Below are positions 2,746 through 57,942 of a stretch of DNA of 64,000 nucleotides, piece by piece (the stretch's first letter is position 1; each line of letters starts with the position of its first letter). Made by a program: the position numbers and the translations under genes. The notes beneath the pieces are model-generated. The model had not been told where the DNA came from. It did no database searches and saw only the letters and a program-made list of their open reading frames with translations. This stretch comes from Candidatus Uhrbacteria bacterium (GTDB taxonomy: Bacteria > Patescibacteriota > Patescibacteriia > UBA9934 > GWF2-40-263): positions 7,363 through 71,362 of the forward strand of contig JACPHU010000002.1 of assembly GCA_016188495.1 (NCBI GenBank), in the 5' to 3' direction.

Positions 2746-2940
2746 TTTGTAAATCTTCTTAAAATCGATGAGATTGCGGTGCACGTCATGCCGAAGGCAG
2801 ATCCGCCTCTGGCGGAGGCTGCCCGCCCGATCGTCGAACGTTCGTTCGGGCGGGTTGAGCCCCGAGAACCCTACTCAGAGTAGGGAGAACGGGGTCAACG
2901 GGCGCCCGTAAGCCGCAAGATCACTATTTTAAGAAGATTT
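2746..2940. repeat. family-1 palindromic MITE-like repeat, long form (copy A)
   Basis: perfect 15-bp TIR aaatcttcttaaaat/attttaagaagattt; internal gcccgcccga...tcgggcggg hairpin; ccctactcagagtaggg hairpin; similar to copies at 12834, 19406, 38033 and others. Confidence 0.8.
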
Positions 2941-3367
2941 ACTTTATTTCTACACCCATCTGACGTGCCGTTCCCGCAATAATATTCATGGCTGCATCAA
3001 CACTTTGGGTATTCAGATCAGGCATTTTCTTTTCTGCGATTTCTTTCAGCTGTGCCTTGGTAATGGAACCAACTTTGTTGGTGAGAGGATTGGCAGAACC
3101 GGACTTAATCCCAGCAGCTTTTTTGATCATGTCAGAAGCCGGAGCTGTTTTGGTAATGAAATCGAATGTGCGGTCATCGTAGACACTGATCACAACCGGA
3201 ACGGTTTCACCTCGTCGATCCTGTGTTTCGTTATTGAAACGGCTGACAAATTCTCCGATAGGGAGTCCGTGTTGACCCAGAGCTGGTCCGATAGGAGGGG
3301 CTGGTGTTGCGGCACCTCCTGGTACTTGTAATTTGATCTGTGTGACGAGTTTTTTGACTTTTGCCAT
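2939..3367 (-). CDS. rplK: 50S ribosomal protein L11
   Basis: [34 protein letters not shown] is the canonical L11 N-terminus. Confidence 0.92.
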
Positions 3368-12823: not shown

Positions 12824-12833
12824 TTCCTTTTAT

Positions 12834-13016
12834 TGAGATTCTTGTAAAACTCGATGAGATTGTCTGCCTACCGGCAGGTAGGCCTTGAATGGGCTGCCCG
12901 CCCGACCGTCGAACGTTCGTTCGGGCGGGTCGAGTACCGAGAACCCTATTCACATAGGGAGAACGGGATCGACGGGCGCCCGTGAAAGGCAAGATCGCGA
13001 GTTTTACAAGAATCTT
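12834..13016. repeat. family-1 palindromic MITE-like repeat, long form (copy B)
   Basis: perfect 18-bp TIR agattcttgtaaaactcg/cgagttttacaagaatct; contains the 35-nt gcccgcccga...cgggcggg module; abuts the prfA stop and prmC leader. Confidence 0.85.
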
Positions 13017-14089
13017 TATTCTTTTTGCGACAAGGCTTCCGTGATCTCTGCACGTTTGAGATCGTTGATGATTTCATCCAAATTTCCATTCATAATAGAA
13101 GGAATATTATGAAAGTTCTGATTGATTCTGTGATCAGTAATGCGATCTTGGGGAAAATTGTAGGTTCTGATTTTTTCTGATCGATCTCCGGTTCCGATCT
13201 GTCCACGTCTTGCATCCTCTCGTTCTTTACGTGCACGTTCTTGTTCTACGGCATAGACACGCGCTCGGATAATAGAGAGCGCTCGTTCTTTATTTTGTTT
13301 TTGAGAACGTTCTTCCTGACAGTACACCATGATGCCTGTAGGAATGTGGGTGATACGTACCGCGGAATAGGTGGTGTTCACGCTTTGTCCTCCCGCCCCT
13401 GTTGAGGTTGTCGCTTCGATTTTTAAATCTTGTGGCTGGATGTCGATATCAACTTCTTCTACTTCGGGGAGAATAGCTACCGTGACCGTAGATGTGTGGA
13501 CTCGTCCCTGTTTTTCTGTTTCTGGAACACGCTGAACTCGATGAACTCCGCTTTCATATTTGAGGCGGCTATAGGCGTTTTGACCTTTGATCTGTACCAC
13601 AACTTCCTTAAAGCCGTTTACATCGCTTCTATTGGCAGAAATCAATTCCGTTTTCCATCCGTGGGATTCTGCGTACAAGGTGTAACAACGCAAGAGCTCT
13701 GAAGCAAATAACGAAGATTCATCGCCTCCAGCGCCTGCGCGAATTTCCACGATCACATTTTTCTTATCCATGGGATCAGGGGGAATGAGGGCGACGGTGA
13801 GTTCTTGTTCTAGTGTTGGAATATGTGTTTCGAGTTCTTTTAATTCCTCTTCAGCCAGAAGGACAAGATCCTCGTCTTTGGTTGTAGCGAGTGTTTCTTT
13901 GGCCCCTTCAAGATCTCGCATCGCTTTGGTATAACGCTCTCCAATTTCAACGATTTCTTTTTCGTGAGCGTACGCTTCGTTGACTTCACGAATTTTTTGG
14001 GGACTTGAAAGAACCTCTTGTGAGGATAGTTTGGATTCAAGTTCTTTTAATCGTTCTTGATGATTGTTGAGTTGTTCAATGAGGTTCAT
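13016..14089 (-). CDS. prfA: peptide chain release factor 1
   Basis: GGQ motif ([10 protein letters not shown]), PxT-type tripeptide (PET) and RF1 domain order. Confidence 0.92.
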
Positions 14090-15670: not shown

Positions 15671-17659
15671 ATGATGAGTATGTTAAAGGAAAATACCAAG
15701 CATTCCTTCCCGTTTTTTGAAGATGCTTATGGAGATTGGGAAACGGATATGGAAGAGCAAAAACATCCACAAAAAAATACCTTAGAAATCGAAAAAAAAC
15801 TTGAAGGTTTGGAATGGGTCGCAAATCCTCCGCTTGAGAACACATCGTTCGTTTATTCTGTACCGATACGTGGAGAATGGAATAATGGCCAAGCGGCTCG
15901 CCTGCTCCAAGGGATGTTGGCACAGCGTATCGCGCCCGGGCAAGCACTTGAAGTAAATTTGTTTGCTAATATTAGCGGTTTATCATCGGGAATAGAGATT
16001 AAAGATGCAGGATCACTTGAAAAGGTGAGAGAAACCGGCGAGGTTGTTCAATTCATACGGGATATCGTGGATGTGCAGAGACTTGCACGGGAGGCCAATC
16101 GCGCTAGATCACGTGCAGACAAAAAAATAAAAAAACAAGAACTCGAACAAAAGATTCAATCCATCCCCGATCCTCTTTCACGTGAACTTCTTCGTCAATC
16201 AGCCGTACGAGCAGAACAGATTTCTATCGCGCTTGTGGATGCTCAGAAGGTTGAAGTGCCCAACATCGGACATGCGCGTACCCTTGGGATTGATGCTGTT
16301 TATGCTCGTTTCCAAAACAATAAAAACATCGTTGTATCGCTTTTTGATGCTGATACAGTACCGCTTGATAATCATACGGTGCAGCAATTGCAAGCGTTGT
16401 ATGCGACCAATCCACGTCTCATGTATGTTTTTTCTTCGATGTCTGACCAAGCCAAAGGAACCAACCGTACTGTCGTCAGTAATACAACCATGGGTCGGCA
16501 TATTTCCTATAACACCACGTGGGGGCATGGGAGTCCGCAAATTTCCTTCCGTCTCCATGCCTATGAGACGCTCAATCGCATAAAAAAATTTGGAATCATC
16601 GGTGACGAAGATCGTGATACGGCTGTGCGATTGGCCTACCATTTCAACGACCTCCAAGACGGTCTTTTGTTTGAATCTAGTCAAATTGCCAATATTGATT
16701 CTTCCCCGCGTGTGCTTACGGCCGATCGCATAGATGGTTTTGTTGACGGTTACGGAGAGCGACATGGCGGTTCGCCTGAAAATATTTTAAATAATAATAT
16801 CAAGGATATTTGGTCATGGCGCAAAAAACTTCTTGAGAAAATCGATCAGCTCCCCGCACAACAAAAAGCAATCACGCTTCGTGTGTTGGAACAGGCACGG
16901 GAAACGGAACTTCACCGGGAAAAAGTACAACAACGGCTCAATAAAACCGTGGTTCGCAGTCTGTTGCGTGCGCACGAGCAAGGGTGGGTCACGATGAGCG
17001 ACCAGGGTCAGAAACTCGTTGTGAATGAAGAGAAAGTATTAGGTTTGCCCGGAGGAAAAGCGTTGACGCATTTTTTGCGCATGAACCGACCTTTGGTTCT
17101 GGATGTTCTTCAGTCACCTGAGGATCTTCAGTGTCTTTCGTATTACACAGGTCTTACGAAGGCCTTTCCTGAACAGATTAAAACGCTTTCCCCGCTCCAA
17201 CATGCATTTCGGGAATACTTGGGCGACGTCGAAGATTTAGGCGCCTCACCTGATTTGCAGGTGAGACACAAAGAAACATTTGATCCAAACGAATACGCCA
17301 ATGTAGAGACGGTCGAAGATAAACGACTGATCGAATCTAAACTTTCGTTTTGGCATGGCATGACCGCGGAATTGCTCGCTTTTGCCCATGTGGATCGAAC
17401 GCTCTTCCAGTCCGCAGCCTTTGCAGAGTATCAAAAACAGTCCAGTCATTGGAATCCGGAAACAAAACAAGAGTTTCACCGACAAGATCGTCTTGGATCC
17501 GATGCCGAGGCGGCCTTTGCGGCACGAATAGATGAAATGACACAACGACATGGGGAACAGGTGCGTACGCAAGAGAAAAAAGCCGAAGAACATTCATTCG
17601 TAAAATTTCTCTCCCGTTTTCTACCTTTCGCCGCCTTGCTTTATCGATTCAAGAATTAA
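15671..17659 (+). CDS. large hypothetical protein (662 aa)
   Basis: long uninterrupted ORF with normal composition; no recognised motifs. Confidence 0.5.
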   Translation: MMSMLKENTKHSFPFFEDAYGDWETDMEEQKHPQKNTLEIEKKLEGLEWVANPPLENTSFVYSVPIRGEWNNGQAARLLQGMLAQRIAPGQALEVNLFANISGLSSGIEIKDAGSLEKVRETGEVVQFIRDIVDVQRLAREANRARSRADKKIKKQELEQKIQSIPDPLSRELLRQSAVRAEQISIALVDAQKVEVPNIGHARTLGIDAVYARFQNNKNIVVSLFDADTVPLDNHTVQQLQALYATNPRLMYVFSSMSDQAKGTNRTVVSNTTMGRHISYNTTWGHGSPQISFRLHAYETLNRIKKFGIIGDEDRDTAVRLAYHFNDLQDGLLFESSQIANIDSSPRVLTADRIDGFVDGYGERHGGSPENILNNNIKDIWSWRKKLLEKIDQLPAQQKAITLRVLEQARETELHREKVQQRLNKTVVRSLLRAHEQGWVTMSDQGQKLVVNEEKVLGLPGGKALTHFLRMNRPLVLDVLQSPEDLQCLSYYTGLTKAFPEQIKTLSPLQHAFREYLGDVEDLGASPDLQVRHKETFDPNEYANVETVEDKRLIESKLSFWHGMTAELLAFAHVDRTLFQSAAFAEYQKQSSHWNPETKQEFHRQDRLGSDAEAAFAARIDEMTQRHGEQVRTQEKKAEEHSFVKFLSRFLPFAALLYRFKN

Positions 17660-17746: not shown

Positions 17747-19279
17747 ATGCGAAGAAGTTTTGAACAATCATTAGGAGGTTATAACGAAATTGCTCGACAA
17801 TACGAACAGGCAAAAAAAGAGGCGGGGTTTATTGAGGCTGAGCGGATGGCCCACGTCGTAGATTTTCGTTTGGATCAGGAAGCACGTCGAAATAGGACAG
17901 ATAAACAAACCCAAGAAGCGGTTCTTGAAACACAAAAATATAAACAGGAAATCATGACCGCTTTGCACGAGCGTTTTAAAGCCATTGAGCGTAAGGAACA
18001 ACAGGAGGTTCGTAAGGGTCAGCGTCTAATTACCATGAAGGAAGGGAAATTCGTTTGGGATGCGGGGACAGATAAAGGAGAAATTCAGGTGACCCTTGGT
18101 GAATTGCTGACAGACCAGGAATGGGGAGTCGAGTACGTCTTAGACATGGAAAGTGTACCTCGACAGATTCAAAAGCGTTTTGCGGTAGAACAGGCAAAGT
18201 TTCAATTAAGAGAGTTGCTCAATGAGCAGATCATCCTCAATGAGACCGGGAGAACGGATACCCCTTACTATTTGCACGATATCTATAATCAACTTGCTCA
18301 GAAGACAGGCGAAACACAATCAGGTTTTTTAGCCGAACGAGGCGTGAGGACCTTTTTAAAAAAGATGGTGATCGATTACGGGTTACCCGTTGAGATTATT
18401 GATGCGGATGTTTTTCAGGATGTAATGGAGAAAATCGATTTTTCCATTCGTTCAAATACGCGCCATCGCGGAGTAGAAGTCGAACCCGGATCTGAACATC
18501 AAAAATATTTGGGATTTCAATTTACGACATTGGATCCGCGTTCAAGTGAACCCGAGGCTGTGCAACGTCTGGAAAAGAAAAAGAAACAAATCAAAGACGT
18601 AAAACAGAGATTGGATCTTGAGGTTGATGATATCTTGCTTATCACGGTTCCTTCCAGGGTCTATGGGTGGGCTTTCAGAAGCTGGAAGGAATCCGGGTCC
18701 CCGCCAGGGGGTCCGGATCGTTTGTGGCCAAAGGAGGTTCGTATTCAGATTCTGCATTATGCCCTCGTGAATTTTATTGGTGAAGAACAGGCGGATCAAT
18801 TTGCCGCTCGAGTATTAGGAATCCAACAGAAAGATGTCCAGAAAATCTTTTCGCAAACACAAGAGGGATACGTGCAAGAGAGGACAGGTGGGGCAACAGA
18901 GGAGTCAAAAGACCGTTCGAGGTTTTCTGTTATGGGGTCTAGACGTTTTTCTGTGGCTCCACAACTAGTAGCCGCTCTTTCCGCTATGCAAAAAAGAGCC
19001 TCTGGAAAGCGTGATATGCAAGTGAAATTTCAAGAGAGCATTGATTCTTCTGAACAAAGAAAGACACAACGAGATTACAAAGGGATAAAAGCTAGCGAAC
19101 TTTTTGATCGTTTAAATAGAGTGTTGTCAGAAGCAGGTCTAAGAGAGATTGATCCAGAACAGGCAGATTCTATTCCACCCGAATTATCAGATTTTCTATC
19201 CAAAGCGGCATCTTATTCTGACCCTCGTGTGCGTAAGGATTTCGTGATCAATAAATTATTTCCGTCCAGATCGGGATAA
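17747..19279 (+). CDS. large hypothetical protein (510 aa)
   Basis: long ORF; Lys/Glu/Arg-rich; no recognised motifs. Confidence 0.5.
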   Translation: MRRSFEQSLGGYNEIARQYEQAKKEAGFIEAERMAHVVDFRLDQEARRNRTDKQTQEAVLETQKYKQEIMTALHERFKAIERKEQQEVRKGQRLITMKEGKFVWDAGTDKGEIQVTLGELLTDQEWGVEYVLDMESVPRQIQKRFAVEQAKFQLRELLNEQIILNETGRTDTPYYLHDIYNQLAQKTGETQSGFLAERGVRTFLKKMVIDYGLPVEIIDADVFQDVMEKIDFSIRSNTRHRGVEVEPGSEHQKYLGFQFTTLDPRSSEPEAVQRLEKKKKQIKDVKQRLDLEVDDILLITVPSRVYGWAFRSWKESGSPPGGPDRLWPKEVRIQILHYALVNFIGEEQADQFAARVLGIQQKDVQKIFSQTQEGYVQERTGGATEESKDRSRFSVMGSRRFSVAPQLVAALSAMQKRASGKRDMQVKFQESIDSSEQRKTQRDYKGIKASELFDRLNRVLSEAGLREIDPEQADSIPPELSDFLSKAASYSDPRVRKDFVINKLFPSRSG

Positions 19280-19405: not shown

Positions 19406-19568
19406 GAGACCTCTACAAAACTCGCGATCTTGCCTTTCACAGGCGCCCGTCGATCCCGTTCTCCCTATGATGAATAGGGTTCTCGGGATTCGACCTGCCC
19501 GAACGAACGTTCGACGGTCGGGCGGGCAGCCCGTTCAAGGCAATCTCATCGAGTTTTACAGAGGTCTC
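19406..19568. repeat. family-1 palindromic MITE-like repeat, long form, inverted orientation (copy C)
   Basis: 19-bp TIR gagacctctacaaaactcg/cgagttttacagaggtctc (1 mismatch); internal ccctatgatgaataggg hairpin and the 35-nt GC module; ends 18 nt before the rpsB start. Confidence 0.85.
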
Positions 19569-22596: not shown

Positions 22597-23784
22597 ATGA
22601 AATTACGCAAACTTGGAAATGCGATAAGTGTAAAAGGGAAACGAGTGCTTATTCGTATTGATGCCAACGTTCCTGTTGTCAAAGGTCGTGCTCAAGATGG
22701 TCCTCATGGACGGATTGCACGTTCTGCTGTTGATATTAACTGGCTGTCACAGCGTGGGGCAAAGGTGATTGTGATGGCTCATCTTGGCAGACCAAAAGGA
22801 AGGCGTGTTCCGGCCTATTCCCTTAAGCCCGTTGCTAAACGTCTCTCAGGATTACTCGGAAGTAAAATTAAACTTACCCGATCTGTCGTTGGGAAAGATG
22901 TCGAGAAATCTGTTGTGGCCATGCAAGAAGGAGATATTCTTTTATTGGAAAATTTACGTTTTGATTCAAGAGAAGAGGAAAACGCGCCGTCATTGGCTGA
23001 AGCTCTGGCCAGGCTAGGAGATTTATATGTGAATGACGCCTTCTCGGTTTCGCATAGGGCGCATGCCTCTGTTGATGCTCTTACCTCCAATCTTCCTTCT
23101 TATGCCGGACCATTGCTTGCTCAAGAAATAAGCGTGTTGAGCCGTCTAGAACAGAAAGCAAAACATCCATTTATTTTAGTGCTCGGAGGATTAAAAATGA
23201 GCACCAAACTTCCTATCATTAAGAGATTTATCGATCAGCTGGATTTCGTTCTTATCGCAGGAGCTTTGGCAAATATTTTTTTGGTCGCACAAGGATTCTC
23301 TGTTGGGAAATCTGTGTTTGAAGAGGGTGTTCTTGAAGAAGCAAAATGGTTGCTCAGTACGCATGGCGAAAAGATCGTCCTGCCGGTGGATGTGTTGTGT
23401 GTGCGTTCATTGCGTAAAGACGCAAAGAGAACTGTTTGTTCTATCGATCAAATTCACGAAAAAGACCGTGTCGTCGATATTGGTCCACAGACGCAAAAAC
23501 AGTTTGAGCAAATTCTTCATCAAGCCAAAACGATCGTCTGGAACGGACCCCTTGGCTACTGTGAAATACCTGCCTTTGCCCAGGCAACTGAGCAAATCGC
23601 AAAAGTTATTGCTCATCAAACAAGTCACGCAACCACGATTGTGGGCGGAGGAGATACGCTTCCCGTCATTGAATCACTCCATTTAGCTGATAAATACACG
23701 CTTCTTTCAACCGGAGGCGGGGCTCTTCTCCAATTTCTCTCAGGGGAATCGCTTCCGGGTATTGATGCGCTTAAAACTTCATAG
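22597..23784 (+). CDS. pgk: phosphoglycerate kinase
   Basis: KGKRVLIRIDANVPV N-terminal motif; hinge and C-terminal GGGDT-like region; start trimmed to MKLRK. Confidence 0.9.
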   Translation: MKLRKLGNAISVKGKRVLIRIDANVPVVKGRAQDGPHGRIARSAVDINWLSQRGAKVIVMAHLGRPKGRRVPAYSLKPVAKRLSGLLGSKIKLTRSVVGKDVEKSVVAMQEGDILLLENLRFDSREEENAPSLAEALARLGDLYVNDAFSVSHRAHASVDALTSNLPSYAGPLLAQEISVLSRLEQKAKHPFILVLGGLKMSTKLPIIKRFIDQLDFVLIAGALANIFLVAQGFSVGKSVFEEGVLEEAKWLLSTHGEKIVLPVDVLCVRSLRKDAKRTVCSIDQIHEKDRVVDIGPQTQKQFEQILHQAKTIVWNGPLGYCEIPAFAQATEQIAKVIAHQTSHATTIVGGGDTLPVIESLHLADKYTLLSTGGGALLQFLSGESLPGIDALKTS

Positions 23785-23901
23785 AACTTCCTCACTTGGC
23801 GCATAGCTTTGTCGAAATCTACGTTTTTTGTTCACTGTATGTGAATACAGCTCATAAAAAGCCTCGATTTCTTCGCGCTCTGCATCCAATTGAGAAAGTT
23901 C
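23784..23901. repeat. family-2 palindromic repeat (copy K1) between pgk and eno
   Basis: TIR gaacttcctcacttgg/ccaattgagaaagttc; about 95% identical to the copy at 40861-40979. Confidence 0.8.
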
Positions 23902-23910
23902 TACATCATT

Positions 23911-37107: not shown

Positions 37108-37356
37108 CTATCCATCTGTATAGAGTTCAACCAGTCGCCATTCAAGAAATTCTGAATCCAGTTTGAGTTTGAAGTAATTGTTTACATCCGAGACGGAAAA
37201 ATAGTAGATACGTTTGTGCCCCTCATGAGAACTTTGGACAAGATTTACGGTTTTAATGACGTAGTTTTGTTCGTTCCATCTGAGTGAACAGGGGAGAATA
37301 CGATTATCTTTAAACGAAACGACGACATCGATAGGGTCGTTAAGTAGTTCGTGCAT
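37108..37356 (-). CDS. small hypothetical protein (82 aa)
   Basis: ORF only; lies downstream of lexA and flanked by a repeat copy. Confidence 0.3.
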   Translation of the reverse strand: MHELLNDPIDVVVSFKDNRILPCSLRWNEQNYVIKTVNLVQSSHEGHKRIYYFSVSDVNNYFKLKLDSEFLEWRLVELYTDG

Positions 37357-37371
37357 AGGAAAAGATGTTTA

Positions 37372-37497
37372 AACCTCTGCAAAACTCGCGATCTTGCCTT
37401 TCACGGGCGCCCGTTGACCACACTCTCCCTATTCTGAATAGGGTTCGTGCGGCTCAACAGCCCGTTCAAGGCAATCTCATCGAGTTTTGCAAAGGTC
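37372..37497. repeat. family-1 repeat, short form (copy D)
   Basis: TIR acctctgcaaaactcg/cgagttttgcaaaggtc; lacks the 35-nt GC module. Confidence 0.8.
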
Positions 37498-37938
37498 TTA
37501 TTATATGTGAAAGAAGTTCACGGAGAGTTCGTTTGATTTGACGGCGGCTTGTGCGGATACGAAATAAACGCAATCCTTTTGCCATTCGTTGATCGCGTCG
37601 ACGTGGAAGAAAGCAAAACGTATTAAAGTGATGACGAAGGATGGAGGTAGACATAATAAAGAGGGTTTAGATGAATGATTGGGATCAATCGTCTAAGACA
37701 ACGGCTCGGCCGCAAAAAGGATCAAGGACGTGATCTCTTCTATTCCGCTCAGATTGAATAGAAGAACGATCTTTCCTTTTTCCAGCTTTGTAGCAGAGTC
37801 GTTATCTTGGACACATGAAGGATAAGATCAGAGAGATTTTTCCGGCCTAGTTGCTCTCCGATCTTTCCTTTATTACAATAAAAAAGCTGCCATACGTCTG
37901 GGATTTCGTTCCCGCACGTAACCGGTGGTTTTTGTAAG

Positions 37939-37981
37939 GAACACTGTTTTGTCTTGCCGGACGCCAGTGTTCTTTTTTTTG
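37939..37981 (+). terminator. rho-independent terminator in an ORF-free region
   Basis: gaacactg...cagtgttc stem followed by T8. Confidence 0.5.
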
Positions 37982-38032
37982 CACAGACTGTTGTGTGATC
38001 CCGTTCACAACAGAATGCACATGAAATCTCTC

Positions 38033-38190
38033 CATAAATCGATGAGATTGCGGTGCACGGGCTGCCCGCCCGACTGAACGACGAGCAATCCTGTTCAGTC
38101 GTTCGGGCGGGTCGAGCTCCGCGAACCCTACTCACAGTAGGGAGAGTGGAGTCGACGGGGCCCGTAAGCCGCAAGATCGCGATTTCTGGA
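38033..38190. repeat. family-1 repeat, long form (copy E)
   Basis: aaatcgatgagattgcggtgcacg start identical to copy A; gcccgcccga...cgggcggg module; ends 10 nt from the lexA stop. Confidence 0.8.
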
Positions 38191-38199
38191 GGGATTTCT

Positions 38200-38814
38200 C
38201 TACACAGGTTGGAATTTTCGTATAACAGCTCTTACTACTCCTTGGATGATGCAGTCTTGGACATAAATAGGATCCATTGAACTGTTTGCTGGTTGGAGAC
38301 GGATTCTATTTTTTTCTCGGTAGAAGCGTTTGAGTGTGGCAAAGGCGTTGTCCATGAGAGCAACGACCACCTCGCCGTTTCTGGGAGAGGGATTGCGTTC
38401 GATCACCACAAAGTCTCCGTTGAGAATCCCGTCTTCGATCATTGAACGTCCTTTGACCCGCAGAACATAAGAGTTAGCACCATCTAGGACAAAGTCTGCA
38501 GGAACGGCCATGGCTTCGTTGTCTTGTACGGCTTCGATAGGTTCTCCGGCTGTGATGAGTCCCAACAGAGGGAGCATGATTGATGATTCGGATGGAGATT
38601 CTTGTACAAGTTCGATAGATCGGGCTTCGCCGTCTTCTCCGTTGGTAATAAGACCTTTTTCTAAAAGCATTTGAACGTGCCCATGTACCGTTGCAGGAGA
38701 GGATAATCCAAAATGGTCGGCAATTTCACGATAGGATGGAGCATAACCATTTTCGCTCAGGTGTTCGCGAATGAATTCCAGAACTTCAGCCTGTTTTTTT
38801 GTGAGTGGTGGCAT
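38200..38814 (-). CDS. lexA: SOS transcriptional repressor LexA (S24 peptidase)
   Basis: N-terminal wHTH (LSENGYAPSYREIA), Ala-Gly cleavage region, GRSM Ser-nucleophile motif and the catalytic Lys in the C-terminal region. Confidence 0.9.
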   Translation of the reverse strand: MPPLTKKQAEVLEFIREHLSENGYAPSYREIADHFGLSSPATVHGHVQMLLEKGLITNGEDGEARSIELVQESPSESSIMLPLLGLITAGEPIEAVQDNEAMAVPADFVLDGANSYVLRVKGRSMIEDGILNGDFVVIERNPSPRNGEVVVALMDNAFATLKRFYREKNRIRLQPANSSMDPIYVQDCIIQGVVRAVIRKFQPV

Positions 38815-38825
38815 AGGGGAGTAAG

Positions 38826-38953
38826 GAGACCTCTACAAAACTCGCGATCTTGCCTTTCACGGGCACCCGTCGATCCCGTTCTCCCTATGTGAATAGGGTT
38901 CTCGGGACTCGACAGCCCGTTCAAGGCGATCTCATCGAGTTTTGTAGAGGTCT
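38826..38953. repeat. family-1 repeat, short form (copy F) in the lexA 5' leader
   Basis: perfect 19-bp TIR gagacctctacaaaactcg/cgagttttgtagaggtctc; begins 12 nt upstream of the lexA start codon. Confidence 0.85.
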
Positions 38954-38972
38954 CTAAGTGAAGTGGATAACT

Positions 38973-39014
38973 GTTCGCTTTCTGTTCGTATTATATTGCG
39001 AACAAAAACCGAAC
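38973..39014. promoter_or_regulatory. candidate LexA operator: composite palindrome TGTTCG-N6-GTTCG-N10-CGAAC-N6-CGAACA
   Basis: two GTTC-N7-GTTC / GAAC-N7-GAAC half-sites arranged as a 17-bp inverted repeat in the lexA/metK divergent region. Confidence 0.3.
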
Positions 39015-39115
39015 ACAAGAGAAGGGTGTGGATATCGTTTTTTATTCACCTAACATCCCCAAGTTTTGCGATGACAGTCGAGTAAAATTTTGGTATTCTG
39101 AGGCAGTATTTCTTT

Positions 39116-39314
39116 GGAGATCTTTGTAAAACTCGATGAGACCTACTTGCCGGTAGGCAGGTAGCCTTGCCTGCCTGTCGGCAGACAGGAATGGGGAAAC
39201 CCGTCCGAACGGACATAAGGCCGGGCGGGTCGGCGACAGAGTCGTACCTAAACGTACGGCGACAAGCCGATGAGGCCCCATGAAATGAAAGATCGCGAGT
39301 TTTGCAAAGATCTC
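39116..39314. repeat. family-1 repeat, variant subfamily (copy G), abutting the metK start
   Basis: TIR agatctttgtaaaactcg/cgagttttgcaaagatct; interior shares gaatggggaaacccgtccgaacggacataaggccgggcgggt with the repeat at 61806-62000. Confidence 0.8.
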
Positions 39315-39315
39315 T

Positions 39316-40362
39316 ATGAAGAAAACGGTCGAGTCTGTCACACAAGGTCATCCGGACAAAATCTGCGATCAGATCGCTGATGCGATCGTGGATGAGTATT
39401 TGCGTCGGGATAAACACGCACAAGTAGATGTAAATGTTTTGGGGTCCCATGGCATGGTAATGATCGCGGGAGAGGTAACCTCTACGGCTGATTTTGATAT
39501 CGGAGCGCTTGCTCAAAAAGTGTACGAAGAGATCGGATATAAAGATGATATAGAAGTCTTTGTAAATATCGAAACGCAATCCGACGAAATGAAACGCATT
39601 ACCAATGGGGTAATGGACAACGTTGTGGTGAATGGATATGCCACACAGGAGACCCGTGAATTGTTACCAAGATCACTTGTCTATGCTCATAATCTCGCTC
39701 GTCGTTTAGATGATTTGCGAAAATCAGACCCGGCTTTTTCTTGGCTCAAACCAGATGGAAAGATACAGCTTACGATGGAGGGGGATCGTGTGTGTGCGGT
39801 GACGGTTCTTGCCTCTCATCACGTCAGTATTCAAGAGAAAGAAGTGAAGACCGCTCTATTGGATCGTTTATTGGTTCCTGTCGTGGGAGAAGAAGGCGTC
39901 CAAATATATATCAATCCTGTCGGTTCGTTTCATCAAGCAGGTTTTCGATCCGACTCAGGAGCCAGTGGTCGTAAATTAACGGTAGATACCTACGGAGGTC
40001 TTGTTCCGCAAGGAGACAAATCTCTTTCGGGGAAAGACCCCACAAAAGTAGATCGCGCCGCTGCTTACATGGCCCGGTTTGCTGCACGATTTATTGTGGA
40101 ACAAGGTCTTGCGACCTCCGCGATGGTGACATTGGTTTATTCGATGGGGCAACCGCAGCCGATTTATCTTCAAGCATTGGGAATGGGGGAAAAATCTCGA
40201 GGAAGCAAGATGGATCTCACCAATGTGTTAAAACAAACTTTCGATTTTCGTCCTCAAGCGATTGTAGAGTTTTTGGATCTGATTCAGCCGCTGTATCGCG
40301 CTACAGCGGCTTATGGACATTTTGGGAGACAGGGATTCCCTTGGGAAGATAAAGTGTTATAG
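39316..40362 (+). CDS. metK: S-adenosylmethionine synthetase
   Basis: ESVTQGHPDKICDQIADAIVD N-terminal signature; 348 aa, shorter than the typical 380-400 aa. Confidence 0.85.
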   Translation: MKKTVESVTQGHPDKICDQIADAIVDEYLRRDKHAQVDVNVLGSHGMVMIAGEVTSTADFDIGALAQKVYEEIGYKDDIEVFVNIETQSDEMKRITNGVMDNVVVNGYATQETRELLPRSLVYAHNLARRLDDLRKSDPAFSWLKPDGKIQLTMEGDRVCAVTVLASHHVSIQEKEVKTALLDRLLVPVVGEEGVQIYINPVGSFHQAGFRSDSGASGRKLTVDTYGGLVPQGDKSLSGKDPTKVDRAAAYMARFAARFIVEQGLATSAMVTLVYSMGQPQPIYLQALGMGEKSRGSKMDLTNVLKQTFDFRPQAIVEFLDLIQPLYRATAAYGHFGRQGFPWEDKVL

Positions 40363-40847: not shown

Positions 40848-40860
40848 CTTAGGACTTCCT

Positions 40861-40979
40861 CACTTGGCGCATAGCTTTTCGAAATCTACGTTTTTTGTTC
40901 ACTGTATGTGAATACAGCTCACAAAAAGCCTCGATTTCTTCGCGCTCTGCATCCAATTGAGAAAGTCCTATAACTTCGA
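40861..40979. repeat. family-2 palindromic repeat (copy K2)
   Basis: TIR aggacttcctcacttgg/ccaattgagaaagtcct; near-identical to the copy at 23784-23901. Confidence 0.85.
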
Positions 40980-43295: not shown

Positions 43296-43829
43296 TTACT
43301 GATGGTTAGTACCTGTTTTTTTGATCGTGGGTTTTGCACCTGTGGCTTGCGCAACGGGCGGGGCTGTAATCAGTTTCAGACCAGATTCCCCAGTAATCTC
43401 CTGGAGAATCTTTCGAGAGGAACAATGTATATCAGGACAACGTCCTTCTGTTCGCGGGACGTGTTTTTCACACTCGATGCATTTCCAGTCTCGATGAGAC
43501 GCCGTTTTTTTCCGGTGGCACCATTCCATCCACCAAGCCGTCAGTGCAAGCGTTTCCTCCGTTTCTTCAGACAAGTCCTTCAGAAGATCGTTCTTTTGAG
43601 GAACTAACTGATAGAAGGGTATTTGGTTTGGAGTCAATCGTAGAATTTGGATCTCTCCTTCAAAGAGACAGGATACAAGCGGGTGTAAACGCATCCACAA
43701 CACAGAGGGAAGTTCTTTTGGCGTAAGAACATGTCCTATTCCACCATAAATATGGGTGAATTCCATCCCGTCTTGATCCATCTTTATTTGGAGAGGGAAA
43801 AGGGTGATACCACGGGTTTGTGTACTCAT
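43296..43829 (-). CDS. hypothetical Cys-rich protein
   Basis: 177 aa; CxxC...C cluster near the C-terminus (CIECEKH...CPDIHC). Confidence 0.4.
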   Translation of the reverse strand: MSTQTRGITLFPLQIKMDQDGMEFTHIYGGIGHVLTPKELPSVLWMRLHPLVSCLFEGEIQILRLTPNQIPFYQLVPQKNDLLKDLSEETEETLALTAWWMEWCHRKKTASHRDWKCIECEKHVPRTEGRCPDIHCSSRKILQEITGESGLKLITAPPVAQATGAKPTIKKTGTNHQ

Positions 43830-43875
43830 GCGTCTCCTATCTGTGGTGAGTGCCAGAACCTGTTATAATACTAAC

Positions 43876-45276
43876 ATGCAAGGAACAATAAGTGAAAAAA
43901 CATTCTATCAATATCTCAAGTGCCCAAATTGGGTGTATTTTGACGCATACGCGCAAGCTGCCCGTCCGCATGATGCACTGATGTCTAAGCTTCAAGACGA
44001 CGGACTTATCGAAGAAAAAGAACGGGATCTTCTTACGGATCGTCAGGATTTGGTTGAAGTGACCGCTGAAGATCCTGACGAAGCGTTTGCTCAAACGCTG
44101 ACGTTTATGCGTGAGGCGCGCCAGACGATTTATCATGGAGTGCTCGTGGATAAACATTGGGTAGGGCATCCTGATATTTTAGAGAAAGTTGAGGGACGCT
44201 CTCACTTGGGGAATTATTACTATGTTGCCGCTGATATTAAACGATCTCGAGAAGTTCGTGATGATTATAAGTTTCAGGGATGTTTTTATGCCGAGCTTTT
44301 GGAACGTATTCAGGGCGTTAAGCCTGTTCAGGGATACATCCTAACACCCGAGAATCAGAGTCTGTCTTATTTAATTGAAGAGTTTGAGGCCAAGTATGAA
44401 CTGACACTGACCGAAATCGAGAAGATTATTGCCGGCAAACGTCCGGCACATTTTGTGACTTCAGGATGTAAGCAGTCGCCTTGGTACAAAGAATGCCGGC
44501 ACGAATCGGAGAGTTGCGAAGATCTTTCTTTATTGAACCGCGTCTGGCGGGACGAAGTGTCTAAACTCGAAGAAGCGGGGATTAAGACGATTGGACAGCT
44601 TGCCCTGAAATCTATTCCGGAATTAGAAAAGATTGCACCAGAGGTCAGTTCTTCTCGTCTTGAAATGATGCGCGACCAAGCCATCGCGATTAAAGAAAAT
44701 CGTTATATTATTCGTGGAACGGTAGATTTGCCAGAGTCCAATATTGAACTCTATTTTGATATTGAAAGCGATCCGTTGCGTGATTTTGATTACTTGTTTG
44801 GAGTTTTGGAAGTAACCCCGCAAGGAGAGCACTATCATTCTTTTTTTGCTCAGACTCCTGAACAAGAGGGAGCGATGTGGGCAGAGTTCGTTCAATTCAT
44901 TGAACGCCATATCGATGCGCCGATCTATCATTATGGCTGGTTTGAAGAAGAAGTCGTTCATCGATTCGCTGCCAAATATGGTATCGGAGAAATAGCTCGT
45001 GAAGCCCTTGAACGTAACATGATCGATCTTCTTTCCGTGATTCGTCCGGCTATTATTTTCCCCCTCTCTTTCTATTCATTGAAAGACATTGCTGGGTATA
45101 TTGGGTTTGAATGGCGGAGCAAAGATGCCTCTGGGGCTAATTCCGTTGTCTGGTTTGAAGAGTGGCTTCAGAAAAAGAGTCCGAAACTTATTCAGAAGAT
45201 TTTGGAATATAATGAAGATGATGTCCGCGCAACGTATCGGCTTCAACGTTGGGTACGCGAACATGTGATGTTATGA
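43876..45276 (+). CDS. RecB-family nuclease of the TM0106 type (Cas4-like PD-(D/E)xK N-domain plus RNase-H-like C-domain)
   Basis: N-terminal ISEKTFYQYLKCPNWVYFD resembles the Cas4/DUF83 start; a 4-Cys cluster in the middle; C-terminal YFDIESDP exonuclease-like motif; the start coordinate is approximate because the ORF track and my base count differ by 1 nt. Confidence 0.45.
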   Translation: MQGTISEKTFYQYLKCPNWVYFDAYAQAARPHDALMSKLQDDGLIEEKERDLLTDRQDLVEVTAEDPDEAFAQTLTFMREARQTIYHGVLVDKHWVGHPDILEKVEGRSHLGNYYYVAADIKRSREVRDDYKFQGCFYAELLERIQGVKPVQGYILTPENQSLSYLIEEFEAKYELTLTEIEKIIAGKRPAHFVTSGCKQSPWYKECRHESESCEDLSLLNRVWRDEVSKLEEAGIKTIGQLALKSIPELEKIAPEVSSSRLEMMRDQAIAIKENRYIIRGTVDLPESNIELYFDIESDPLRDFDYLFGVLEVTPQGEHYHSFFAQTPEQEGAMWAEFVQFIERHIDAPIYHYGWFEEEVVHRFAAKYGIGEIAREALERNMIDLLSVIRPAIIFPLSFYSLKDIAGYIGFEWRSKDASGANSVVWFEEWLQKKSPKLIQKILEYNEDDVRATYRLQRWVREHVML

Positions 45277-46563: not shown

Positions 46564-47037
46564 ATGTTGACCGATTATATTCTTGGAGGATCATTGGGCG
46601 GCCTCATTGCGTTTGTTTTTGCTATTCCTGCTATCGTGTTAGAAATGACTGAATCAGGCAAGGTGAAAAACGCTCCTCTCTTGGTTGATGTAAAAACGAT
46701 TTTTGGATTGAAGATTATTCATAAACACGAAGTTTTTTTTATCGGATTGCTTCTTCATCTTGTGTTTGGTTTTCTGTTTGGGATTGTCTACGTTTTGTTC
46801 GTGGAACAAGGATGGCTTTTTGTCACACATGCTCCTTATACCGTTTTTTCTCTTGTTGTCTTTGCTTTTTTAAGTTGGGTTGTTGTAGGGGTGATTATTT
46901 ATCCGTTGTTAGGTTTAGGTATTTTTGGATTAAAAGAAGGTCCACGTGTATGGCTTGAAACACTTACCTCTCATTTGATTTTAGCTTTTTCTTTGTGGCT
47001 TTTAGTACGGTATTTTCAGCCATTCTTTTTTAATTAG
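46564..47037 (+). CDS. hypothetical polytopic membrane protein
   Basis: 157 aa, four to five TM helices. Confidence 0.45.
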   Translation: MLTDYILGGSLGGLIAFVFAIPAIVLEMTESGKVKNAPLLVDVKTIFGLKIIHKHEVFFIGLLLHLVFGFLFGIVYVLFVEQGWLFVTHAPYTVFSLVVFAFLSWVVVGVIIYPLLGLGIFGLKEGPRVWLETLTSHLILAFSLWLLVRYFQPFFFN

Positions 47038-47158
47038 GACTTTCTCATTTGGCGATCTACTTGCGCTTCGCCCATAAAAACCTGCGTCGTATATCTGTAT
47101 ACGCCTCCGGTTTTTATGGACTCCAGCGCGGCGCATCTCATCCAAATGAGAAAGTCCT
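47036..47158. repeat. family-2-related palindromic repeat (copy K3, divergent interior)
   Basis: TIR aggactttctcatttgg/ccaaatgagaaagtcct matches K1/K2 termini; the interior differs. Confidence 0.7.
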
Positions 47159-47181
47159 ATTAATCCTCCATTATAGCAAGC

Positions 47182-48618: not shown

Positions 48619-48972
48619 ATGGCTTATCTTCTTTTTCGATGGGTCATCAATGGACTGGCCCTGCTCTTGGTTGCCAATATTGTTCCTGGGTTTGCTATTG
48701 ATTCATTTTATAGCGCATTGATTGCTTCTTTGGTCTTGGGTTTGGTTAATGCTCTGGTTCGTCCTCTGTTTTTGATCCTCACGTTGCCTGTGACCATTTT
48801 AACTCTTGGTCTTTTTACTTTCGTCATTAATGCATTCATGATTTGGCTTGTTTCAACGGTTGTCAAAGGATTTACGGTTGATGGATTTGTTCCGGCACTG
48901 TTAGCCGCTTTGCTGTTATGGGTTTGTTCTCTCATTACCAATTGGCTTATTAAACAATCTAAAGAAAGTTAA
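48619..48972 (+). CDS. DUF360 / phage-holin-family-4-like small membrane protein
   Basis: 117 aa, four TM helices; WVINGLALLLVANIVPGF pattern typical of YvlD/DUF360. Confidence 0.55.
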   Translation: MAYLLFRWVINGLALLLVANIVPGFAIDSFYSALIASLVLGLVNALVRPLFLILTLPVTILTLGLFTFVINAFMIWLVSTVVKGFTVDGFVPALLAALLLWVCSLITNWLIKQSKES

Positions 48973-48976
48973 CATC

Positions 48977-48998
48977 GACGCCTGTGGGCGTCTTTTTT
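48977..48998 (+). terminator. rho-independent terminator
   Basis: gacgcctgtgggcgtc followed by tttttt. Confidence 0.65.
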
Positions 48999-49003
48999 AA
49001 ACT

Positions 49004-50743: not shown

Positions 50744-50873
50744 GAGATCTCTCAAAAAATCATGATCTTACGGCTTACGGGCGCCCGTCGACCCCACTCT
50801 CCCTATTCTGAATAGGGTTCGCGGGGCTCGACAGCCCGTGCACCGTAATCTCATCGATTTTTTGAGAGATCTC
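50744..50873. repeat. family-1 repeat, short form (copy H) inside the rplJ leader
   Basis: TIR gagatctctcaaaaaatc/gattttttgagagatctc; the core gggcgcccgtcgaccccactctccctattctgaatagggttcgcggggctcgacagcccg is shared with copies at 37372 and 56314. Confidence 0.85.
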
Positions 50874-51895: not shown

Positions 51896-52281
51896 TTTAC
51901 TCGATTAAGTTGGACACCTTCTAAAAAGAGGACGTCGGGATCATCTGTGGTTCTTATGACCATCGTGTAAGTTTTTTGATTATTATCAAACGTTTTTTCT
52001 ACTTCAATAGAACCATCCAAATAGCGTTGCGTAATGCGGTAGGTTCCTTCTTCTTTGTAATCCGTTCCGGTGTTGAGGCGATAAGAACCGTTGGAGAATT
52101 CGTACTCCATAAACCATTCAAAACCATCTGTATTTGTCCCTCCTGCGTGCCAGCGACCTATCAGTTCATCTTTTACGACGAGATTAACCGTTGTTTGTTC
52201 AGAATGGAATTTAGGCCATAAGAATAACCCCCCTACAATAAATATTCCTACAATCAGAACGAATAGGTGATGTTGTTTCAT
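51892..52281 (-). CDS. hypothetical membrane-anchored small protein
   Basis: 129 aa; N-terminal TM helix. Confidence 0.45.
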   Translation of the reverse strand: MKQHHLFVLIVGIFIVGGLFLWPKFHSEQTTVNLVVKDELIGRWHAGGTNTDGFEWFMEYEFSNGSYRLNTGTDYKEEGTYRITQRYLDGSIEVEKTFDNNQKTYTMVIRTTDDPDVLFLEGVQLNRVK

Positions 52282-54500
52282 AATGATTTTATATGACTAG
52301 CGGCAATAGAATAAAGTTTTGATCCTGCCAGCAGATAGATGGTGTATCCTGCTTCATCCACACTGAAATCTGTGAGTCCAACAAAGGCGTCAGAACGATA
52401 TTGGACAACAAACGTTCCGGTTTGTTTATCAAAAACAATTACTCGTTGTGTAGAAGGTTCCAGGACATAGATAAATGGACTTTGAGCATTCGTCCAAATT
52501 TTTGTTGCATCGGCAATTCTTGGATCTACCGTTCCTGTTGCCCATTCTTCCTCGCTTCCATTTGAGAATTTTACAACCGTTCCATCTTTTTTCAGAACGA
52601 AAATAGTTCCGTCAATAGCCAAAGAAACAGCCTGATTCAAAGACGATGTTTTTGATTTAATCCAGGAAGATTCATCTGTAAAGGATGAACCGTTTCGATT
52701 GAAACGAATGATTTGGCCGTCTGTTCCGTTTGGGTCCTGTCGTAAAAGATAGAGTCTATTTGCGTAAGTTTCAAGATCAACCCATGGGTCATCTCCAATG
52801 GAAAGGGATGACACCTCTTTTTTTTCTAAAGAAACTCCATACACAGACCCGTTTTCGCTCAGTACAAAGAATTGTCCATTTTCTTGATTTGTTGTGGCTA
52901 TAGAGGAGGCTAGTCCATCTGTTGATGTCACCACGACGTCAAATTGTTTCTGTGAGGAACTATAGGTATAGACACGACCATCTGAGGCAACAACAGAAAT
53001 AGTTCCAGAATTGAGAACCATACTATTTCCGAAAACCCCGTCTGCCACGGTTTCCAGATCCGCAAGTAAAGGAGGGTTCGGGATCGTAATTAAATGGCGA
53101 ATTTCATTCAGGGCTGTCTGGAGGGTTTGAGTGAGCTCTTTGTTTTTTTCTTCTCTTTGAGGAGTGTCTGATGGAAGAAGTTCAATGAGCGTTTGGGCAT
53201 TCACATACAGGCTGCGTGCTTGATTTTCGTCTTTGTAAATGACGGCGCCTGCGGCACGTTCCATAAGATCCTCAATTTGTACGATTTTTGCTTGATACGC
53301 CGCTTCTTCTTGTGAACGGGCTTGTGATTTTGTCATTGTAGAAATTCCTCCTATCAGAATAAGAACCCCAACGACGATGCCACCCATAAGATATTTTGTT
53401 GATCGTGGCAAAGTGCGCATGCGTTCAAACAAAGACCTCAGTTTTCCTCGGATATGGACTCGTTTCATTTCAACCTTTTTTTGGAGTGTTTCCCGTTGAT
53501 CTTTATTTTTTAAGATAGAGATTGTATAGGAAGCATGCTTTAAACCCATTTTTGTGAAGAAAGAAATCACTTTCCATACGCTTCTGCCCGTTCGTTTTAA
53601 AAGGTCTGGAAACGTTCCTTGGTTTTGAAGATCTTTTAAAATCCGTGATCTTGAATCGGTTTTCGATTGAATGAAACTAAATAGTTTTTTTAGCCAATGA
53701 AAGACGTTGGGACGCCGGTCGTCTAAGAGCCATTCCGTGGTTTGTTCCGTAGAATTCATTTTTTCTACAGAGAGATTTGATTGTGGAATAGCTAGTAGTT
53801 GTCTTTGTTCAGTGGCGGGGGTGGGGTTTTCTTCTCCTATTTTTATAACAGTGAGAAGAACGTCCTCATTATGTGCAAAATACTGGCGAATTTTTTCGAC
53901 AGCACTCACTGGTGGAAGGGTGGAAAGAATTTCATTGAGTTCATCAACAGGCAGTATACGTTGAAGATCCTTGTCGGTGATACAAAAAATGTCGCCTGGA
54001 TGAAGGTCTCCATCCAAAACAACAGCAAATGTTTTTTCCCATGTGGGAAGAGATTGTTCTGTTTGTAAACCACGAAAGAGATTGAATACTTGATATCGTT
54101 GGGAAGGTTTCTTATGAAGGAAAAGCGCGACAAGTTCTCCTGTACCAGACAGATACATCTCTTGAGAGGAAGTAATCCCTACAATCGCGTGAAGTTGCTC
54201 GATAGGAATATTCCAATGGCCTTCTCGTACCTGTTCTGCTAAGGTTTCATTTAATGCACCCAGGAATTGTTCAAAGCGGTGTTGAAGATTCGCTTCCTTT
54301 CCAAAAGACTCAGCGAGTCTGCGTGTTTGGTCTCCAAGAACTTGTAAGAGTAGATCCGAGTCCGCATTTTCTTTTTTTGTATAGGCAATAAGGAAGGCAA
54401 ATCCACTCCGTTCCTGTACGGGAAGGAGTAATGAAATTCCCCGGACATGCTCATCTGGGGTTTGGGGATTATAAGAGGCACCTTTGATTTCACCTGACAT
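52278..54500 (-). CDS. large hypothetical protein with central TM helix and beta-rich C-terminal region
   Basis: 740 aa; TM segment MGGIVVGVLILIGGI; C-terminal Ser/Thr/Gly/Val-rich repeats suggest a beta-propeller-like fold. Confidence 0.5.
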   Translation of the reverse strand: MSGEIKGASYNPQTPDEHVRGISLLLPVQERSGFAFLIAYTKKENADSDLLLQVLGDQTRRLAESFGKEANLQHRFEQFLGALNETLAEQVREGHWNIPIEQLHAIVGITSSQEMYLSGTGELVALFLHKKPSQRYQVFNLFRGLQTEQSLPTWEKTFAVVLDGDLHPGDIFCITDKDLQRILPVDELNEILSTLPPVSAVEKIRQYFAHNEDVLLTVIKIGEENPTPATEQRQLLAIPQSNLSVEKMNSTEQTTEWLLDDRRPNVFHWLKKLFSFIQSKTDSRSRILKDLQNQGTFPDLLKRTGRSVWKVISFFTKMGLKHASYTISILKNKDQRETLQKKVEMKRVHIRGKLRSLFERMRTLPRSTKYLMGGIVVGVLILIGGISTMTKSQARSQEEAAYQAKIVQIEDLMERAAGAVIYKDENQARSLYVNAQTLIELLPSDTPQREEKNKELTQTLQTALNEIRHLITIPNPPLLADLETVADGVFGNSMVLNSGTISVVASDGRVYTYSSSQKQFDVVVTSTDGLASSIATTNQENGQFFVLSENGSVYGVSLEKKEVSSLSIGDDPWVDLETYANRLYLLRQDPNGTDGQIIRFNRNGSSFTDESSWIKSKTSSLNQAVSLAIDGTIFVLKKDGTVVKFSNGSEEEWATGTVDPRIADATKIWTNAQSPFIYVLEPSTQRVIVFDKQTGTFVVQYRSDAFVGLTDFSVDEAGYTIYLLAGSKLYSIAASHIKSL

Positions 54501-55634: not shown

Positions 55635-56306
55635 ATGTCTTTCACCCAACAAATTCTTCAGGGGCCTTTGTTAGAACTTTGGGAGAATGTCGTAGCTTAT
55701 TTGCCAAACGTGATCGGAGCCATTTTTGTTTTTTGTATCGGTGTAGCCCTTGCTCTTGTATTGCGTAGCGTTGTGGTGAATGTGATCGCGTTATTGCGTA
55801 TCGACGAACTTTCAAAACGTCTTGAAATTACAGGTCAGTTTCAGCGTTTTGGTCTGCGTTTGCATATAGGAGAACTGTTGGGTTGGATTGTAAAGTGGTT
55901 TTTTATTATTATCGCTCTTATCGCGGCAACAGACATTCTCGGATGGGATCAAGTAACCGATTATTTACAAAGAGTGGTGTTATTTATTCCAAACGTCATT
56001 ATCGCGGTCATTATTTTGTTAGCGGGAATTCTGTTGGGAAATTTCGTTCAGCGCGTGGTTAAAACAGCGGTAGAGACGGCACATCTTGCCTCTGCGGATC
56101 TTCTTTCTGGAATTGCAAAATGGGCCATCTTAGTCTTCAGTTTCATGGCGGCACTCGTTCAGCTTCAGATTGCTCCAGAACTTATTCGAGTGTTATTTAC
56201 AGGGCTTGTTGCCATGATTTCTATTGCCGGAGGTTTAGCCTTTGGTCTTGGTGGCAAAGAGCATGCGAATCGGTTGTTGGATCGACTTAAAAAAGATATT
56301 TCTTAA
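55635..56306 (+). CDS. membrane protein with repeated conserved-TM-helix motifs (MscS-associated type)
   Basis: 223 aa, four to five TM helices with internally repeated pattern. Confidence 0.35.
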   Translation: MSFTQQILQGPLLELWENVVAYLPNVIGAIFVFCIGVALALVLRSVVVNVIALLRIDELSKRLEITGQFQRFGLRLHIGELLGWIVKWFFIIIALIAATDILGWDQVTDYLQRVVLFIPNVIIAVIILLAGILLGNFVQRVVKTAVETAHLASADLLSGIAKWAILVFSFMAALVQLQIAPELIRVLFTGLVAMISIAGGLAFGLGGKEHANRLLDRLKKDIS

Positions 56307-56313
56307 GACATAA

Positions 56314-56425
56314 GTAAAACTCGCGATCTTGACGTTTTCGGGCGCCCGTCGACCCCACTCTCCCTATGGTGAATAGGGTTCGCGGGGCTCGACAGCCCGA
56401 AAACGTCAATCTCATCGAGTTTTAC
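56314..56425. repeat. family-1 repeat, short form (copy I) upstream of the GT2 gene
   Basis: gtaaaactcgcgatcttgacgttttcgggcgcccg...cgggcgcccgaaaacgtcaatctcatcgagttttac. Confidence 0.85.
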
Positions 56426-56444
56426 ATATGCCTCTCTTCATAAA

Positions 56445-57929: not shown

Positions 57930-57942
57930 AAGAGAAAGGTTT

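Follow-up and report, generated by a model that had tools for sequence, protein, structure and literature searches.

What separates the long from the short copies of a dispersed hairpin-forming repeat, and what kind of element places such copies between the genes of a bacterial chromosome? Both questions are raised by the repeat at positions 12835–13016 (minus strand) of a 64-kb stretch of Candidatus Uhrbacteria DNA (hereafter the window, to which coordinates refer unless a locus is named). A sequence-only reading had described the repeats of this group (family-1) as modular, with long copies equal to short copies plus a 35-nt GC-rich hairpin cassette at a fixed internal position, and had offered two origins for this architecture, namely nested insertion of a smaller palindromic unit or precise deletion. 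The window (~43% GC) is bacterial chromosome, and Pfam searches identify gyrB, rplK, rplA, prfA, prmC, lexA, metK, mreB, rpsB, glycolysis genes, a uvrD-like gene and other housekeeping genes along it.

The copy at 12835–13016 occupies the whole spacer from the stop codon of prfA to the ribosome-binding site of prmC (flanking genes assigned by Pfam), scores 175 bits with a covariance model of the family (R1, built from ten copies) and folds with a predicted energy of −84 kcal/mol (z = −7.9). Comparison of its sequence with its flanks places the termini at GAGATTCTTG...CAAGAATCTT, directly bordered by a 4-bp target-site duplication (TSD) TATT (12831–12834 on the left and 13017–13020 on the right; AATA on the element's own strand). 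The GC-rich stem-loop that distinguishes it from short copies is 33 nt long and occupies 12897–12929 (minus strand). A second accessory hairpin of 20 nt (12863–12882, minus strand; CTGCC-TACC-GGCAG type) separates the inner stem from the conserved core, and hairpins of this type recur in the copy at 39115–39316 and in a distant copy at another locus (L008).

Exactly 10 family-1 copies are detected in the window by R1 (E = 1e-27 to 1e-42), including all eight that had been listed from the sequence, each of which lies where it had been placed, and two divergent copies added by a repeat scan and motif searches (39115–39316 and 61801–62004). All are intergenic, with five on each strand of a window whose GC skew is uniform. 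Long forms other than that between prfA and prmC lie between rplK and rplA (2749–2942, minus strand; cassette 2822–2854, with an extra 31-nt double hairpin at 2786–2816), upstream of rpsB (19406–19568, plus strand; cassette 19494–19526) and downstream of lexA (38023–38198, minus strand, hereafter L38033; cassette 38065–38111, expanded in its loop to 47 nt in total). Short forms, all on the plus strand, lie at 37370–37499, 38826–38954 (4-bp TSD TAAG; 95% backbone identity with the long copy at 19406), 50744–50873 (flanking repeat AACAT, with a 1-nt offset) and 56305–56433 (TSD TCTT). The two divergent copies, both on the minus strand and termed variant X, lie upstream of metK (39115–39316; a diverged homologous cassette CCCGCCCGG...TCGGACGGG and a 41-nt block with an extra hairpin) and upstream of mreB (61801–62004; identified by an R1 match and motif search). 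Some large ORFs adjoining elements (17747–19279, 56445–57929, 52278–54500 and 15671–17659; 494–740 amino acids) have no Pfam match.

We consider it probable, with good confidence, that the family-1 repeats are non-autonomous DNA transposons (MITEs) and that the cassette is a within-family module shuffled among copies. The elements are ~85 to 215 bp long (266 bp in a nested composite), contain no ORF and are fully occupied by hairpin structure; they are bounded by TIRs of the type GAGACC...GGTCTC (GAGACCTCTNCAAAAC...GTTTTGNAGAGGTCTC and variants; consensus GAGAYCTCTNYAAAAC). Small size and lack of coding capacity are thus combined with TIRs, TSDs and dispersed copies that show presence/absence polymorphism. 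The strongest evidence for mobility comes from a set of 54 copies, comprising those of the window and of related MAG loci (designated by L numbers), in which termini were set by alignment to the model and direct repeats were counted immediately outside the GAGACC...GGTCTC ends: a flanking repeat of at least 4 bp is present in 28 of the 54 copies, as compared with 1.9 expected when left and right flanks are paired from different copies, and about half of the copies have no recognisable TSD. In the main subfamily, these duplications are 4–5 bp long and varied in sequence (TAAG, TCTT, GTCT, GGTA, GAAGT, TCAAT and others); in a subfamily with TCTTGAATTACG arms, the flanking repeats reach 6–8 bp. 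The active mechanism that the sequence-only reading had postulated is therefore borne out, in the form of transposition with target-site duplication.

Comparisons between loci point in the same direction. At L097 (3977–4261), one element is nested, in reversed orientation, within the apical stem of another, with a TSD CCTA. At window positions 48972–49003, there is only a terminator-like hairpin (GACGCC TGTG GGCGTC TTTTTT), and L007 has a MITE at that spacer, which appears to take the place of the intrinsic terminator. The site upstream of mreB carries the X copy in the window and a short-form copy in the opposite orientation in L104, and in L087 (~70% identity) the orthologue of the 56305 site also holds an element. 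The same long form is found at two loci with different TSDs (TAAAC at L112 and AAATG at L113), which indicates that long forms are transposition-competent as whole units and move as such. We envision that the element inserts into short intergenic spacers and duplicates 4–5 bp of target (6–8 bp in one subfamily), and that a DDE-type transposase, whose action the target duplications suggest, would be supplied in trans.

The internal structure of the elements is unusually constrained. Proceeding inwards from the termini (GAGACC..AAAACTCGCGATCTT / AATCTCATCGAGTTTT..GGTCTC, when read together with the core), each copy contains an invariant and asymmetric subterminal core (..TCGCGATCTT.. in the left arm and ..ATCTCATCGA.. 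in the right arm), and its interior comprises an inner stem, a 12-nt palindrome ACGGGCGCCCGT and an apical hairpin, P2. In the core, left 5'-CG|C|GA|TC|TT faces right AA|TC|TC|AT|CG, giving a 1-nt bulge, a 2-bp helix and a 2x2 mismatch; a GCCC bulge and a 3x3 loop in P2 are also conserved. A reading of the core as a hammerhead or K-turn (CGAUGAGAU / AAGAUCGCG) was rejected on comparison by hand with the consensus motifs, as the required U4 and the GA beside the C-stem are absent. Each short copy is predicted to fold into a single long, imperfect hairpin, with energies of −67 to −83 kcal/mol and z-scores of −10 to −12 relative to dinucleotide-shuffled sequences. Across the 54 copies, 95.7% of the pairs of the model are formed, as opposed to 73% in shuffles and 34–42% in controls with slid partners, and helix 1, which joins the termini, is 96.5% paired. 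Double-sided changes fill 505 cells spread over all helices, from termini to apex, and the pairs consist of 2359 Watson–Crick, 24 G:T, 55 A:C and 51 others. Terminal sequence varies widely between copies in one genome and left and right arms nevertheless stay complementary, which may reflect amplification from master copies and/or correction between arms. In an element at L059 (2789–2939), the left-type core (TCGCGATCTT) stands on both arms, so that the asymmetry is erased; this copy provides what seems to be evidence that arm conversion occurs.

Covariation that extends beyond the TIRs, together with invariant internal loops, is not predicted by a plain MITE made of two IS ends, and hints at constraint on a folded single strand. 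It could be argued, then, that the element is mobilised as a folded strand recognised by its shape instead of by classical TIR binding, with the conserved bulge, the 2x2 mismatch and the GCCC bulge acting like the extrahelical bases of attC sites or like IS200/IS605 ends. Arms that vary as pairing and loop geometry are kept, across MAGs of at least five assigned phyla and in a sister family (family-2, below), would fit such a mechanism, as would pairing that is almost strictly Watson–Crick, with tandem G.A-type loops and commoner wobbles on one strand, and the fact that no transposase was found. Nonetheless, we consider it improbable: TSDs of 4–5 bp are the signature of a staggered DDE-type cut and known hairpin systems of HUH enzymes and integrases make none; orientation is unbiased between the strands of the window despite its uniform GC skew; and the L059 copy carries the left-type core on both arms. 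If it were true, structure-specific mobilisation would be combined with target duplications, a combination undescribed for HUH/integrase hairpin systems, and optional hairpins would be tolerated since only stem geometry near the core would matter. Under the preferred reading of the elements as MITEs, the core would be where the transposase binds, at left and right ends that differ slightly, and the tips would be the part at which cleavage takes place.

The same structural data could be taken to mean that the repeats are structured RNAs (cis-regulatory or sRNA) selected for their fold, with the cassette as an optional helix and mobility as an incidental property. The very strong covariation along the whole hairpin and the invariant asymmetric internal loops are in line with this, as are the GNRA (GUGA) and UUCG loops of some copies and the position of elements inside operons (rplK–rplA and prfA–prmC) and, for one element, in place of a terminator hairpin in a relative. 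We find this distinctly unlikely, however, given that G:U pairs are rare in the tally above, unlike in typical RNA helices, and that the strand evidence is inconsistent: the complementary strand (B) has purine-rich loops (tandem GA) and commoner wobbles and folds 1–13 kcal/mol more stably, whereas the GNRA and UUCG loops and a slight gene-sense majority favour the opposite strand (A). Both orientations relative to co-directional flanking genes occur (20 sense and 13 antisense, without bias), and TSDs, nesting and site polymorphism show DNA mobility. Rfam, moreover, has no match at gathering score over the window and only chance-level matches at E<5 over 37300–39400.

With the family thus circumscribed, the difference between long and short forms can be defined exactly. 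Multiple alignment and pairwise global alignments uphold the modular architecture that had been proposed: instead of scattered indels, the alternative that would have spoken against it, what sets the forms apart is one contiguous block, always found at one site. The block is discrete, as claimed, and its true length is 33 nt and not 35, because the flanking ctg/cag belongs to the backbone and is present in short forms too. When the short copy at 38826 is aligned with the long copy at 19406, one 33-nt gap (CCTGCCCGAACGAACGTTCGACGGTCGGGCGGG) is opened, and the remaining differences are 6 substitutions and an indel of 1 nt in a loop. The cassette reads CC(C/T)GCCCGA-ACGAACGTTCGACGG-TCGGGCGGG, forms a perfect 9-bp stem and is always found between ..CTCGA and CAGCCCG.., in one orientation; only in L38033 is it lengthened, by the loop expansion noted above. 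Both X variants carry a homologous, diverged cassette (CCCGCCCGG...TCGGACGGG) at the same site. Folding predictions for the long form pair the cassette's 3' end with GCCC(G), which is bulged in short forms, so that a fully paired three-way junction results. A long form would be the same element with a 33-nt stem-loop added where P2 meets the 3' strand, by which a rod is turned into a three-way junction. Besides the cassette, further hairpins, likewise discrete and inserted at fixed points elsewhere in the element, are present in three long copies (20 nt at 12863–12882, 31 nt at 2786–2816 and 41 nt in 39115–39316); these other accessory hairpins are singletons or recur only within elements.

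Whether the cassette has ever moved on its own was addressed by looking for it outside elements. The window and 0.88 Mb of related loci contain no free-standing cassette, and a metagenome collection scanned for the exact pattern yielded none either. All occurrences in the first two sets lie inside elements (four in the window and two at L079), and so do five of five matches in the metagenome scan, four of which come from the LBWG01 genome, with two of these re-sampling the L079 copies. Position and orientation are identical in all nine distinct L-type copies, and the alignments reveal no duplication at the cassette borders. The idea that a smaller palindromic unit was inserted into an older element is hence unsupported, and we regard the cassette as a structural module within one element sub-lineage and not as an independent mobile unit. 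That it is a small mobile palindromic unit of REP type, inserted repeatedly into older elements, is highly improbable, even though it is a discrete block with a perfect 9-bp stem that occurs on different backbones and although other small GC-rich hairpins are also found within elements, as it is confined to elements, to one position and to one orientation, leaves no border duplication and has only singletons for company among the other accessory hairpins.

How, then, did long and short forms come to coexist? Precise deletion, the other origin that had been offered, is a possible explanation for some short copies. Overall, with long forms restricted to the window lineage, the cassette looks like a lineage-specific gain that copies have since exchanged or lost. 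That short forms with an identical junction are widespread in Uhrbacteria MAGs and that the cassette is globally rare speak for its gain in the window lineage with subsequent shuffling or loss, with the qualification that the genome-wide core search used a pattern limited to short-form spacing, which biases the sample towards short forms; an older origin of the cassette is suggested by the homologous cassette of the X variants. A tree built from the backbone only intermingles long and short forms, with the short copy at 38826 placed inside a clade of three long copies and that at 50744 as sister to L38033, and a table of modules contains every combination of inner stem (TTGCCTTTC or TTGCGGCTT), P2 (CCCGTTCTCC or CCCCACTCTCC) and presence of the cassette. 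One long form (L111, 3044–3224) has arms from two subfamilies (GAGACCTCTGC versus CTGTGAGTTAC) and is, to judge from these arms, an inter-element recombinant; a mini form at the same locus (1776–1880) is devoid of the entire apical hairpin P2. Exchange between copies, by recombination or gene conversion, combined with internal hairpins being gained and lost, accounts best for this mosaic. In this scenario, the cassette would have arisen in one sub-lineage and been carried along as long forms transposed, and copies would acquire or lose it when dispersed elements recombine or undergo gene conversion and/or when the hairpin is precisely lost. Arms, inner stems and apical hairpins may be shuffled in the same ways, which would also give rise to mini, chimeric and extra-hairpin variants.

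A sister family (family-2) shares this architecture. Its copies in the window (23782–23903, 40850–40970 and 47031–47163), none of which is detected by R1, have termini TAGGACTT...AAGTCCTA and a variant core, TTGGCG.../...CATCCAA. Two of them are flanked by 5-bp TSDs (TAACT and TTAAT), and the copies at 23782 and 40850 are 97% identical. The apex of these last two (CTGTATGTGAATACAG) is also present in the family-1 variant at 61801–62004.

L104 (LBWG01000003; Candidatus Uhrbacteria GW2011_GWF2_39_13) is syntenic with window positions 56545–63998 at 83–86% identity, which identifies the host of the window, a tiny bacterium from groundwater, as a close relative of GW2011_GWF2_39_13 within the CPR/Patescibacteria. 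MreB (window 61968–63011) is 100% identical in protein sequence between the two, in surrounding DNA of ~83–86% identity, and the MITE directly upstream of it is of a completely different type and orientation. Matches to the core pattern with which the genome collection was scanned (TCGCGATCTT N72-102 ATCTCATCGA) are strongly enriched in Candidatus Uhrbacteria MAGs, and R1 confirms ~44 further copies in Uhrbacteria-type loci. Weaker but clear R1 matches occur in MAGs labelled as delta-proteobacteria, Syntrophorhabdales, gamma-proteobacteria and unclassified bacteria, and a copy in a Polaribacter MAG (L068) was found by a search for the core motif plus arms, not by R1. These distant copies (L008, L042, L045, L053, L063, L065, L046, L052, L068 and L083, with L117 an IMG/VR viral contig) share only the core and the hairpin architecture, their arms and interiors being unrelated, and binning errors are possible for some of them. 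A scan of viral contigs yielded one weak copy of the delta type, all other matches being at chance level, and BLAST of a short family-1 copy against plasmids gave no match. Copies of the Uhrbacteria type also occur on three contigs that were binned as 'Lentisphaerae GWF2_44_16', which may be due to mis-binning or to transfer.

The enzyme that mobilises these elements was sought in several ways. Pfam searches of 40 window ORFs (nearly all above 200 amino acids) yielded housekeeping genes and no transposase; all-against-all BLASTP revealed no multicopy transposase-like ORFs in ~0.4 Mb of Uhrbacteria loci; and there were neither IS-sized pairs of ends (0.45–5 kb apart) nor solo ends beside ORFs in any of the loci searched, the search for ends having yielded only the L059 copy with its left-type core on both arms. 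No autonomous IS with family-1 TIRs was encountered in the window or in the ~0.4 Mb of Uhrbacteria loci. One protein with an RNase_H_2 domain (43804–45276) was considered as a transposase and rejected, being single-copy with a syntenic homologue in L007 (66% amino acid identity). The delta-proteobacterial and Syntrophorhabdales relatives were likewise set aside as ends of a larger element, as the repeat unit there is only ~170–230 bp. With no coding capacity, no transposase, no multicopy ORF and no IS-sized pair of ends, we regard family-1 as MITEs for which an autonomous partner was not found; the core common to MAGs assigned to other phyla points to a widespread transposase.

Of the previously known systems, the Correia elements of Neisseria (CREE/NEMIS) invite the closest comparison. 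They are dense intergenic MITEs with TIRs and hairpin RNA, often inside operons, and exist both in a long form and in forms shortened internally by one discrete block. The likeness to Correia elements that the sequence-only reading had drawn is accordingly apt as an analogy (that is, in the coexistence of long and internally deleted short forms), and we take these elements to be the closest functional analogues of family-1. In Correia elements, which are restricted to Neisseria, the target duplication is TA, the sequence of the 26-bp TIR is fixed and an IHF site is present; family-1, in contrast, duplicates 4–5 bp of no fixed sequence, has unrelated termini and an invariant asymmetric core, and resides in a CPR host. 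MITEs of the ERIC and RUP types are imperfect palindromes over their whole length of ~110–130 bp, with compensatory changes between arms, and ERIC contains inserts at fixed internal sites. Family-1 resembles both in its whole-length hairpin with compensatory changes, and ERIC in its fixed-site inserts, but has no sequence relation to them (no Rfam match and no plasmid BLAST match) and differs in host phylum, TSDs and accessory hairpins. Membership in Correia, ERIC or RUP is excluded by the type of TSD, the termini and the host.

Other systems share less with family-1. BIMEs and REPs, to which the repeats had also been likened, are similarly intergenic and built of GC-rich palindromic units in variable arrangements, but REPs are 35–40-bp units without TIRs or TSDs and linked to RAYTs, whereas family-1 is a bounded element with TIRs and a TSD and contains no REP units; the likeness to BIMEs does not hold, and identity with REP/BIME was rejected, as the small GC-rich hairpins occur only inside bounded elements. 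Integron attC sites have R''/L''–L'/R' boxes, stand in a single orientation in cassette arrays and make no target duplication; identity with attC was rejected, the copies being found between housekeeping genes, in both orientations and with TSDs. Some family-1 arms (GGGTCTGTTCCCGAA and GAGGCTGTCCCAAAAC, with a shared ..TGCAAAA.TCG..) seem to resemble, over a short stretch, the ends of IS6 elements, and one family-1 subfamily has repeats of 6–8 bp. The IS6 IR consensus has a GG tip and cTGTt and caaa motifs, with an 8-bp TSD (PMC7986276). Derivation of the MITEs from IS6 was nevertheless not adopted, given that the GAGACC tips and 4–5-bp TSDs of the main subfamily do not fit and that only caaa and partial TGT motifs are in common; nor was any IS6 transposase encountered, and the family is assigned to no IS family. 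No description of MITEs or repeats in Uhrbacteria, CPR, Patescibacteria or Parcubacteria was found in the searchable literature.

In summary, CPR/Patescibacteria genomes are small, streamlined and usually called repeat-poor, yet hairpin MITEs of family-1 and its sister family cover ~3% of a 64-kb stretch of core genes. The interest of the family lies in this unusual, streamlined host, in the density of copies within core operons and in an invariant asymmetric core with covarying stems, a combination not expected of a plain MITE. Given that elements sit inside operons, where they directly separate a stop codon from the ribosome-binding site that follows, the transcripts of these operons must carry hairpins of −70 to −85 kcal/mol, and family-1 may in this respect offer a handle on effects on gene expression. 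It also provides a tractable marker of recent genome dynamics in the uncultivated Uhrbacteria, in which insertion, nesting, recombination between copies and the gain and loss of hairpins can be followed.
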